Part shown: piece after piece, positions 23,250 to 26,305 of the stretch | How the letters are laid out: every line of letters begins with the position of its first letter | Numbering within the stretch: the first letter of the stretch is position 1 | Assembly: GCF_003334315.1 (NCBI RefSeq) | Contig: NZ_QOWR01000060.1 | DNA: 28,819 nt | Reading direction: 5' to 3' (one strand) | From: Escherichia coli | GTDB lineage: Bacteria > Pseudomonadota > Gammaproteobacteria > Enterobacterales > Enterobacteriaceae | The notes under the pieces: model-generated | What the model was told of the DNA's origin: nothing | Seen by the model: only the letters and a program-made list of their open reading frames with translations | Database searches by the model: none | Program-made: the position numbers and the translations under genes

Positions 23250-23762
23250 ATGCAATTAGATGAACAACGCCTGCGCTTTCGTGACGCGATGGCCAGCCTG
23301 TCGGCAGCGGTAAATATTATCACCACCGAGGGCGACGCCGGACAATGCGGGATTACGGCAACGGCTGTCTGCTCGGTCACGGATACACCACCGTCGCTGA
23401 TGGTGTGCATTAACGCCAACAGTGCGATGAACCCGGTTTTTCAGGGCAACGGTAAGTTGTGCGTCAACGTCCTCAACCATGAGCAGGAACTGATGGCACG
23501 CCACTTCGCGGGCATGACAGGCATGGCGATGGAAGAGCGTTTTAGCCTCTCATGCTGGCAAAAAGGTCCGCTGGCGCAGCCGGTGCTGAAAGGTTCGCTG
23601 GCCAGTCTTGAAGGAGAGATCCGCGATGTGCAGGCGATTGGCACACATCTGGTGTATCTGGTGGAGATTAAAAACATCATCCTCAGTGCAGAAGGTCACG
23701 GACTTATTTACTTTAAACGCCGTTTCCATCCGGTGATGCTGGAAATGGAAGCTGCGATTTAA
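23250..23762 (+). CDS. hpaC: HpaC, NADH:flavin oxidoreductase component of 4-HPA 3-monooxygenase
   Basis: 170 aa (MQLDEQRLRFRDAMASLSAAVNIITTEGDAGQCGITATAVCSV...), flavin-reductase fold; follows hpaB with an SD. Confidence 0.93.
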   Translation: MQLDEQRLRFRDAMASLSAAVNIITTEGDAGQCGITATAVCSVTDTPPSLMVCINANSAMNPVFQGNGKLCVNVLNHEQELMARHFAGMTGMAMEERFSLSCWQKGPLAQPVLKGSLASLEGEIRDVQAIGTHLVYLVEIKNIILSAEGHGLIYFKRRFHPVMLEMEAAI

Positions 23763-23769
23763 GCTCCAG

Positions 23770-23804
23770 CCCCTTCACGCATTCGTCGAAGGGGTATTTT
23801 TATT
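23770..23804 (+). terminator. Rho-independent terminator of hpaBC
   Basis: CCCCTTC-acgcattcgtc-GAAGGGG followed by TATTTTTATT. Confidence 0.8.
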
Positions 23805-23827
23805 GTGATCTCAATCACATATCCACC

Positions 23828-23855
23828 CGATGAATAATTCTTGCCCAACCGCTCA
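23828..23855 (+). promoter_or_regulatory. Direct repeat ACCGCTCA / ACCGCTTA in the btsT promoter, candidate LytTR response-regulator (BtsR/YehT) binding site
   Basis: Two copies of ACC(G)CT(C/T)A separated by 12 bp, about 300 bp upstream of the btsT start. This matches the YehT/BtsR binding motif as I recall it from the yjiY promoter. Confidence 0.55.
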
Positions 23856-24154
23856 CCGCCATTCCTGACCGCTTACATCCCTAAAATAACCACTCAGTTA
23901 TTTACCTTACTTTACGCGCGCGTATCTCTGGCAACATCACTGCAGGATAGCGGTCAATTTACCTCCTCAAATGCAACGCAAACCTAGAACGGCTTCGGCC
24001 TATGATTAACAAATTACTCTATGGATTTTGGTTTGCAGGAAGGCAGCAAGTGAGTGAATCCCCGGGAGCTTACAAAAGTAAGTGTCAGAGGTGAACGAAC
24101 GCAGCTGCCGCACCTGTAAGCCAAAAGACGACGAGTAAAATGCCAGGTTTTACT

Positions 24155-26305
24155 ATGGATACGAAAAAACTATTCAAGCACATACCCTGGGTGATTCTCG
24201 GAATCATCGGTGCATTCTGCCTCGCGGTAGTTGCATTACGTCGGGGGGAGCACGTCAGCGCCCTGTGGATCGTGGTCGCCTCTGTGTCGGTGTATCTGGT
24301 GGCTTATCGCTACTACAGTCTGTACATCGCCCAGAAGGTGATGAAACTCGACCCCACGCGCGCGACGCCTGCGGTTATTAACAACGACGGTCTGAACTAT
24401 GTTCCGACCAACCGTTACGTGTTGTTTGGTCACCACTTCGCCGCTATCGCCGGTGCTGGTCCGCTGGTTGGTCCGGTTCTCGCCGCGCAGATGGGCTACC
24501 TGCCCGGCACGCTGTGGCTGCTGGCGGGGGTAGTGCTGGCCGGTGCGGTACAGGACTTTATGGTGCTGTTTATCTCCTCTCGCCGTAACGGCGCATCTCT
24601 CGGTGAGATGATCAAAGAAGAGATGGGGCCAGTACCGGGAACTATCGCGCTGTTTGGCTGTTTCTTAATCATGATCATCATCCTCGCCGTCCTGGCGCTG
24701 ATTGTGGTTAAAGCCCTGGCCGAAAGTCCGTGGGGTGTCTTCACCGTTTGCTCAACCGTACCGATTGCGCTGTTTATGGGTATCTACATGCGCTTTATCC
24801 GTCCGGGGCGTGTGGGTGAAGTCTCTGTAATCGGTATCGTGCTGCTGGTTGCCTCTATCTACTTCGGTGGCGTGATTGCTCACGATCCGTACTGGGGTCC
24901 GGCACTGACCTTTAAAGACACCACCATTACCTTCGCGCTGATTGGCTATGCGTTTGTTTCCGCACTGCTGCCGGTGTGGCTGATCCTCGCACCGCGCGAC
25001 TATCTGGCAACCTTCCTGAAAATCGGCGTTATCGTCGGCCTGGCGTTGGGTATCGTGGTGCTGAACCCGGAACTGAAAATGCCTGCGATGACCCAGTACA
25101 TTGACGGTACTGGCCCGCTGTGGAAAGGCGCTCTGTTCCCGTTCCTGTTCATCACCATCGCCTGTGGTGCGGTATCTGGCTTCCACGCGCTGATCTCTTC
25201 CGGTACGACGCCGAAACTGCTGGCTAACGAAACCGACGCGCGTTTCATTGGCTACGGCGCAATGCTGATGGAGTCCTTCGTGGCGATTATGGCGCTGGTT
25301 GCAGCGTCCATCATCGAACCGGGTCTTTACTTCGCGATGAACACCCCGCCTGCGGGCCTTGGCATCACCATGCCTAACCTGCATGAAATGGGTGGCGAGA
25401 ACGCGCCGATCATCATGGCGCAGCTGAAAGACGTTACCGCACACGCGGCGGCGACCGTCAGCTCCTGGGGCTTCGTGATTTCGCCAGAGCAGATCCTGCA
25501 AACCGCGAAAGACATTGGTGAGCCTTCTGTCCTGAACCGTGCAGGTGGTGCGCCGACACTGGCGGTAGGTATCGCGCACGTGTTCCACAAAGTGCTGCCG
25601 ATGGCTGACATGGGCTTCTGGTATCACTTCGGTATTCTGTTCGAAGCCCTGTTCATCCTGACCGCGCTGGATGCGGGTACCCGTTCTGGCCGCTTTATGC
25701 TGCAGGACCTGCTGGGTAACTTCATCCCGTTCCTGAAAAAAACCGACTCTCTGGTTGCTGGTATCATCGGTACTGCGGGCTGTGTGGGTCTGTGGGGCTA
25801 CCTGCTGTATCAGGGCGTGGTCGATCCGCTGGGCGGCGTTAAGAGCCTGTGGCCGCTGTTCGGTATTTCCAACCAGATGCTGGCAGCCGTAGCGCTGGTA
25901 CTGGGCACCGTTGTGCTGATTAAGATGAAGCGCACCCAATACATCTGGGTAACTGTTGTTCCGGCTGTATGGCTGCTTATCTGCACCACCTGGGCGCTGG
26001 GCCTGAAACTGTTCAGCACCAACCCGCAGATGGAAGGCTTCTTCTACATGGCAAGCCAGTACAAAGAGAAGATTGCTAACGGTACTGACCTGACGGCGCA
26101 GCAGATTGCCAACATGAACCACATCGTTGTGAACAACTACACCAACGCAGGCCTGAGTATTCTGTTCCTGATTGTGGTGTACAGCATCATCTTCTACGGT
26201 TTCAAAACCTGGCTGAAGGTGCGTAACAGCGACAAGCGTACTGACAAAGAAACTCCGTACGTTCCAATCCCGGAAGGCGGCGTGAAGATCTCTTCGCACC
26301 ACTAA
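24155..26305 (+). CDS. btsT: BtsT (YjiY), CstA-family pyruvate/H+ symporter
   Basis: ORF 24140..26305; start at the internal ATG (MDTKKLFKHIPWVILGIIG...), 716 aa, highly hydrophobic, CstA family. Confidence 0.93.
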   Translation: MDTKKLFKHIPWVILGIIGAFCLAVVALRRGEHVSALWIVVASVSVYLVAYRYYSLYIAQKVMKLDPTRATPAVINNDGLNYVPTNRYVLFGHHFAAIAGAGPLVGPVLAAQMGYLPGTLWLLAGVVLAGAVQDFMVLFISSRRNGASLGEMIKEEMGPVPGTIALFGCFLIMIIILAVLALIVVKALAESPWGVFTVCSTVPIALFMGIYMRFIRPGRVGEVSVIGIVLLVASIYFGGVIAHDPYWGPALTFKDTTITFALIGYAFVSALLPVWLILAPRDYLATFLKIGVIVGLALGIVVLNPELKMPAMTQYIDGTGPLWKGALFPFLFITIACGAVSGFHALISSGTTPKLLANETDARFIGYGAMLMESFVAIMALVAASIIEPGLYFAMNTPPAGLGITMPNLHEMGGENAPIIMAQLKDVTAHAAATVSSWGFVISPEQILQTAKDIGEPSVLNRAGGAPTLAVGIAHVFHKVLPMADMGFWYHFGILFEALFILTALDAGTRSGRFMLQDLLGNFIPFLKKTDSLVAGIIGTAGCVGLWGYLLYQGVVDPLGGVKSLWPLFGISNQMLAAVALVLGTVVLIKMKRTQYIWVTVVPAVWLLICTTWALGLKLFSTNPQMEGFFYMASQYKEKIANGTDLTAQQIANMNHIVVNNYTNAGLSILFLIVVYSIIFYGFKTWLKVRNSDKRTDKETPYVPIPEGGVKISSHH

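Follow-up and report, generated by a model that had tools for sequence, protein, structure and literature searches.

The question raised by this locus is how the promoter of btsT (yjiY), the gene of a pyruvate/H+ symporter, is organized when the hpa cluster lies directly upstream, and whether BtsR-dependent control has survived next to this neighbor. An earlier note had suggested that the cluster is an island, inserted close to a two-repeat response-regulator site and leaving pyruvate control undisturbed. Our analysis covers 28,819 nucleotides of E. coli contig NZ_QOWR01000060.1, the whole stretch being called the window, and 'window-type' designates the allele found there, as opposed to the K-12-type. 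We consider it very likely that positions 23769-24157 are the ordinary, already characterized btsT regulatory region, in a haplotype with the hpa cluster upstream. This reading draws on what the sequence shows directly: the elements themselves, how far they match K-12, how they are spaced and conserved from genus to genus, and an inserted ERIC element. The promoter and its regulators were already known; the new points are minor, and consist of a conserved third repeat that is degenerate in K-12 and of a leader bearing ERIC.

A motif scan for ACCRCTYA finds three copies 259-307 bp 5' of the btsT ATG (24155), all on the + strand: copy 1, ACCGCTCA (23848-23855), copy 2, ACCGCTTA (23868-23875), and copy 3, ACCACTCA (23889-23896). 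Spacers of 12 bp (copies 1-2) and 13 bp (copies 2-3) give periods of 20 and 21 bp. Over the 28,819-nt window, the motif is observed 8 times for 2.59 expected, a number that 0 of 100 shuffles reach, and the spaced-pair pattern has two matches for 0.00 expected. The pair singled out previously, ACCGCTCA-N12-ACCGCTTA, is real and not a product of chance, but it had been placed at 23828..23855, whereas it lies 20 bp rightward, at 23848-23875. Moreover, the site had been described as a pair, and the third copy on the same strand had been missed.

Which of these copies form the published site of BtsR (YehT)? The abstract of Kraxenberger et al. 2012 (J Bacteriol 194:4272) reportedly gives the YehT motif as ACC[G/A]CT[C/T]A. 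All three copies match it, and its degeneracy is exactly that of copies 2 (ACCGCTTA) and 3 (ACCACTCA) in K-12. According to PMC4222967, which cites Kraxenberger 2012, YehT recognizes a directly repeated sequence whose two copies are separated by 13 bp; this is the distance between copies 2 and 3 (23868-23896), not between copies 1 and 2, which had been proposed as the site and are 12 bp apart. Copies 2 and 3 with their spacer lie inside the btsT promoter and are identical at 29/29 positions to the site of K-12 MG1655, for which binding has been demonstrated. Judged by its spacing, the published BtsR site is made of copies 2 and 3, as upstream and downstream halves respectively, the sole pair with 13-bp spacing in E. 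coli. The K-12 oligonucleotide 'yjiY YehT bs', used by the Jung laboratory for SPR, comprises exactly copies 1-3 (PMC4847170).

Beyond copy 3, the proximal promoter (23897-23999) aligns with K-12 at 100/103 positions. The proposal that the elements of BtsR-dependent control are kept beside hpa therefore appears sound. Upstream, the alignment is of another kind. Copy 1 is 7/8 identical, K-12 having GCCGCTCA, which differs from ACCGCTCA by a G at the first base and is also found in E. albertii; the 12-bp spacer between copies 1 and 2 is 6/12 identical, the 28-bp linker that follows the CRP site 8/28, and the stretch 5' of that site 8/34. The CRP palindrome (16 bp) is 14/16 identical, with unrelated flanks on both sides. 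The comparison with the K-12 yjiY upstream region, which the earlier note had suggested as a check, thus counts against the pair it had chosen, and holds for the retention of the BtsR site. Since what differs from K-12 is the terminator, the linker, the first base of copy 1 and the 12-bp spacer, the distal promoter is, on this alignment, a different allele. It follows that the homology break is inside the promoter, and not at the terminator, with a recombination break probably around 23856-23867. An insertion that would have left the promoter undisturbed is not supported by this pattern, and is too simple a picture. As the functional blocks hold the same positions in the window-type and K-12-type alleles, no qualitative difference in regulation is expected between them.

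The distance between the hpaC terminator and the repeats had also been underestimated: copy 1 starts 44 bp beyond the terminator, instead of about 25 bp, and the gap holds a CRP-type palindrome that had been missed, TGTGATCTCAATCACA (23804-23819), with a perfect TGTGA-N6-TCACA core. This palindrome abuts the terminator and starts 44 bp 5' of copy 1. CRP dependence of K-12 btsT has been published (PMC5431176, PMC7730263), and binding of CRP at 23804-23819 may be anticipated. By its palindrome, the element adjoining the hpaC terminator is a CRP site, and not the BtsR site.

To place these elements in a wider frame, btsT orthologs were collected by a protein-anchored scan, with one genome per species, which gave 80 loci (L005-L084) with proteins 90 to 100% identical. 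The promoter set (n = 64) adds the window and K-12 to 62 loci, drawn from about 20 genera. In 61/64 promoters copy 2 is perfect, and it has one mismatch in the other 3; copy 1 is perfect in 48/64 and copy 3 in 49/64, with one mismatch in 16/64 and 15/64, respectively. Copies 1 and 2 follow each other with a 20-bp period in 60/64 promoters; for copies 2 and 3, the period is 20 bp in 42/64 and 21 bp in 21/64 (one or the other in 63/64). Given that the 20-bp period of copies 2 and 3 prevails in most genera, a 12-bp spacer is normal for the btsT operator outside Escherichia. The CRP core has at most one mismatch in 63/64 promoters, and its distance to copy 1, from start to start, is 44 bp in 58/64. 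Across the 64 promoters, most columns of the repeats and CRP core carry at least 1.8 bits, against values near 0 for spacer and linker columns; the 28-bp linker varies in sequence and is constant in length. A fourth copy, 20 bp 5' of copy 1, occurs in some species, and Pantoea coffeiphila (L075) has four perfect copies. At this position, K-12 has GTCACTTA (6/8) and Citrobacter CCCACTCA (7/8); no fourth repeat copy was found 5' of copy 1 in the window. One contig of the collection, labeled Chryseobacterium sp. 18061 (L065), carries a typical enterobacterial btsT locus, with CRP site, repeats and a 93% identical protein, and probably reflects contamination or a mislabeled assembly.

Could the functional BtsR operator nevertheless be copies 1 and 2, preserved where an hpa island was inserted just upstream? 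The existence of a non-random pair, the maintenance of copy 1 and of its 20-bp period in 60/64 promoters, and the 12 bp that also separate copies 2 and 3 in most genera, which makes such a spacer compatible with BtsR-type sites, are all in keeping with it. However, the 13-bp spacer of the published site is matched in E. coli by copies 2 and 3 alone, and in K-12, where the site was mapped, copy 1 is mismatched and half of the 12-bp spacer differs. Such a pairing also ignores copy 3, which adjoins the core promoter, and supposes an insertion, whereas hpa adjoins btsT in at least six genera and the search for an insertion signature was negative. We therefore hold this explanation to be improbable. 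Somewhat better placed, yet still unlikely in our opinion, is the alternative that BtsR occupies copies 2 and 3 only, copy 1 being conserved for YpdB/PyrR (paralogous LytTR), for a nucleoid protein, or for DNA shape. The published description of the site has two repeats only, and the K-12 promoter functions despite its mismatched copy 1. Against this, copy 1 is the same 8-mer as copies 2 and 3, on the same strand and with the same two-turn period, it is conserved to a similar degree as copy 3 (48 versus 49 perfect copies out of 64), and species such as P. coffeiphila carry four perfect copies with a 20-bp period; the YpdB motif, GGCATTTCAT, is unrelated to copy 1 (PMC4847170).

We favor the reading in which copies 2 and 3 are the BtsR site and copy 1 is probably a real auxiliary (third) half-site, because it is conserved across genera; its mismatch in K-12, whose promoter is functional all the same, should make it dispensable at least in part. 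The G with which copy 1 begins in K-12 and E. albertii is then to be seen as derived. Regulation would then proceed as follows. Low external pyruvate would lead the kinase BtsS to activate the LytTR-type regulator BtsR, a dimer of which would bind copies 2 and 3, while copy 1, on the same face of the DNA, probably serves as the third half-site and cooperates with them. Bound BtsR would recruit RNA polymerase to a weak core promoter, cAMP-CRP at its fixed upstream position would add catabolite control, and CsrA would work on the leader and Shine-Dalgarno region.

What, then, lies upstream of this promoter? The last hpa gene, hpaC (23250-23762, + strand, stop codon at 23760-62), encodes the reductase subunit of 4-hydroxyphenylacetate 3-monooxygenase, as indicated by its ORF and by the annotation of strain CP53 (99.8% identical). 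The terminator recognized earlier downstream of hpaBC is confirmed: a GC-rich hairpin (23769-23795; -16.1 kcal/mol, z -3.0) is followed by a T-run, TATTTTTAT, to position 23803, as in intrinsic (Rho-independent) terminators. A simple terminator scanner missed this hairpin because of its 11-nt loop. In other genera, the interval between hpaC and the CRP site also holds hairpins, unrelated to this one.

The hpa segment extends from about 12528 to about 23803; its place between tsr and btsT is taken, in K-12, by an unrelated stretch of about 88 bp. A site-specific island insertion was considered and, on the criterion of flanking repeats, rejected: neither direct nor inverted ones were found at the junctions of the segment (~12528 and ~23803). 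Furthermore, hpaB-hpaC lies directly 5' of btsT in Raoultella, the Klebsiella oxytoca group, Pseudocitrobacter, two Citrobacter, Enterobacter and Lelliottia (at least six genera), while tsr is the neighbor of btsT in Salmonella, most Citrobacter and Kosakonia. In Escherichia sp. MOD1-EC7003 (L005, 2118-2228), the last 37 hpaC codons precede a window-type btsT promoter without ERIC, a remnant that looks like the deletion scar of an hpa cluster. Other cargo is found as well: in E. coli N61 (L003, 1-2500), an amino-acid deaminase gene and a gene of the N-acyl-D-amino-acid deacylase (D-aminoacylase) family are 5' of btsT instead, with the same hairpin stem (CCCCTTC/GAAGGGG), a different loop, and the CRP site and linker kept. 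At the population level, the promoter is present in 5384 of 5426 E. coli genomes, with the window-type distal allele in 2226 and the hpaC junction in 2066, so that some 160 genomes appear to be window-type at the promoter without hpaC. Taken together, the adjacency across genera, the other cargo and the population counts argue that hpa next to btsT is an old presence/absence polymorphism; the distal promoter in its window-type form, from the terminator through the CRP site and linker to the perfect copy 1, travels with the hpa side. Within the hpa cluster, a REP/BIME-type palindrome pair (GCCGGATAAGGCGTTT...) lies at 18985-19084.

Downstream of the repeats, a simple promoter scan found no canonical sigma-70 -35/-10 pair. 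Column conservation points to an extended -10 element on the + strand, TG-G-CAACAT (TGnCAACAT, 23929-23937): T23929, G23930, A23933, A23936 and T23937 stand out among the columns of the 64 promoters by their high conservation (at least 1.6 bits each), and their neighbors vary. Transcription would then start near 23944. Another candidate, TATCTC (23923-28) as -10 element, was discarded, its columns not being conserved. The same fate befell a sigma-54 promoter, TGGCAA-N5-CTGCA (23929-23944), for which a conserved GG-N10-GC is lacking: K-12 (CTACA) and most genera have no GC at -12. BtsR belongs to the LytTR regulators and has no known AAA+ domain.

With this start, the btsT 5' UTR would span 23944-24154 (+ strand), or about 211 nt, compared with about 88 nt in K-12. 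The leader of about 300 nt proposed earlier mixed the core promoter with the 5' UTR, 123 nt of which are ERIC. Several leader blocks are conserved across genera. The block TACCTCCTCA (23960-23969, + strand) resembles the anti-Shine-Dalgarno sequence of 16S rRNA. A hairpin with a UUCG tetraloop, GGC-TTCG-GCC (23991-24000, + strand), shows one compensatory change, from GGC/GCC to AGC/GCU, in Salmonella, Kluyvera and Pseudocitrobacter. A third block is CCAGGUUUUACUAUGGAUAC, and the Shine-Dalgarno AGG (24145-24147, + strand), inside CCAGGTTTTACTATGGATAC, is near-invariant. Applied to 27 leaders, RNAalifold retained two structures only, the hairpin with the UUCG loop and a short stem formed locally at the Shine-Dalgarno. 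A conserved helix sequestering the Shine-Dalgarno was rejected on this ground, as the pairing of AAACCU (23980-85) with AGGUUU (24145-50) in the MFE structure is not retained. Nor is the GGA at 23945-47 of E. coli a conserved CsrA site, other genera carrying CAGCATAG there. A riboswitch or known leader RNA was also dismissed, an Rfam search at E <= 1 giving a sub-threshold V_AS5 match on ERIC and a meaningless miRNA match. CsrA control of btsT, which is post-transcriptional, has been published (PMC5431176, PMC7730263).

The gene itself occupies 24155-26305 (+ strand, 716 aa), in agreement with its ORF, its orthologs and the annotation of K-12 and CP53. Both annotated strains place the start at ATG 24155 (MDTKK). 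ORF finders give 721 aa from an in-frame ATG at 24140-24142, which is 15 nt upstream, 5' of the Shine-Dalgarno, and not conserved outside Escherichia. In E. coli 20AH011 (L004, 2650-5150), the btsT promoter is not followed by the btsT coding sequence: IS26, a recombinase gene and aph(3'')-Ib / aph(6)-Id come directly after the leader.

The length of the leader is explained by a miniature inverted-repeat element of the ERIC/IRU family (24015-24137, + strand), located inside the presumed 5' UTR. Its 123 bp make up the entire difference in leader length from K-12; the element is missing in K-12 and in N61, and it appears to be the sole strain-specific addition to the btsT leader. ERIC/IRU elements are reportedly the subject of Sharples & Lloyd 1990 and of Hulton et al. 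1991. The complement of primer ERIC1R was used as a probe and matches at 24054-24075 with 2 mismatches, for 0 matches expected. The element is an imperfect palindrome with the central core of the family (~127 bp), and folds into a long hairpin (-53.1 kcal/mol, z -6.4); a weak, sub-threshold match to Rfam V_AS5 lies over it at 24017-24135. It is bounded by TA at 24015-16 and 24136-37, as the description of the family says (PMC3184786). ERIC is multi-copy, dispersed and extragenic, with 43,838 places in the 5426 E. coli genomes, all of which contain it, and a median of 9 detectable copies per genome. Apart from its 123 bp and a few core substitutions, this copy has nothing unusual with respect to the family, including its intergenic, co-transcribed position.

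In a spread sample of genomes, ERIC was found in 12/12 hpaC-adjacent promoters, and in 0/16 hpa-less promoters still retaining btsT. E. albertii (L007) and Escherichia sp. E1V33 (L006) have a 97.6%-identical ERIC at the same site, the E. albertii copy being combined with the K-12-type distal allele, and Citrobacter portucalensis (L016) has an 80%-identical ERIC at nearly the same site. Does the element affect btsT? We give even chances to the possibility that it is a neutral passenger with no influence on expression. ERICs are dispersed MITEs present in many copies, leaders with and without ERIC are both common in E. coli, and the hairpin folds by itself and leaves the Shine-Dalgarno and the conserved leader blocks intact. 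On the other hand, the element ends 7 nt 5' of the Shine-Dalgarno AGG and more than doubles the UTR, and the orthologous copy persists in E. albertii and another Escherichia, with a related one in C. portucalensis. In addition, PMC3184786, citing De Gregorio 2005, indicates that ERICs within transcripts can alter mRNA decay through RNase E. The additional post-transcriptional control that had been read into the long leader is thus not called for by its length, which the ERIC insertion explains, and, in the form of CsrA control, it is not new. A bolder scenario is that the natural BtsR operator consists of three (ancestrally three or four) phased half-sites, in place of the two repeats defined in K-12, that the first base of copy 1, elsewhere invariant, has changed to a derived G in K-12 and in about 59% of E. 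coli, and that hpa-linked haplotypes would have a stronger or more cooperative pyruvate response, further modified by the ERIC hairpin. We mention it as a tentative possibility, which we do not favor as it stands.

Compared with known systems, the locus has little that is singular. It is the same gene and the same promoter as the K-12 yjiY site, with the differences that copy 1 is perfect here, the linker and 12-bp spacer are another allele, the leader contains ERIC, and the hpaC terminator stands in place of the divergent tsr promoter region. The LytTR-family operators (AgrA P2/P3, ComE, PlnC/D, VirR boxes, and the YpdB site in yhjX) are likewise direct repeats of 8-11 bp, 11-13 bp apart, before a weak core promoter (PMC4847170). 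Unlike these canonical two-repeat operators, that of btsT has three copies, four in some species, and a CRP site at a fixed 44 bp. The btsT paralog cstA is likewise activated by CRP from an unusually distant upstream site and repressed by CsrA at its leader (PMC7730263), but it lacks BtsR repeats, and is described as depending on sigma-70 and as repressed by Fis. The arrangement of the hpa cluster, with hpaA, hpaB and hpaC 5' of btsT, is that of E. coli W, B and C, at the usual tsr-btsT location. The E. coli cluster is said to be that of Prieto, Diaz & Garcia 1996. It is present in E. coli B, and not in K-12 (PMC3446290).

Beyond correct annotation, the re-identification of a published regulator site matters little. 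The useful corrections bear on the coordinates, on the pair of repeats that forms the site, and on the element abutting the hpaC terminator, which is to be annotated as a CRP rather than a BtsR site. For work on LytTR regulators and pyruvate sensing, the point to retain is that, across Enterobacteriaceae, the conservation of copy 1 equals that of copy 3, although copy 1 is degenerate in the model strain K-12. In about 40% of E. coli genomes, moreover, the btsT leader is more than twice as long, through an ERIC element beside the Shine-Dalgarno. Because of these differences in copy 1 and ERIC, results obtained with PbtsT reporters of K-12 may not transfer quantitatively to strains B and W, and to many wild strains.
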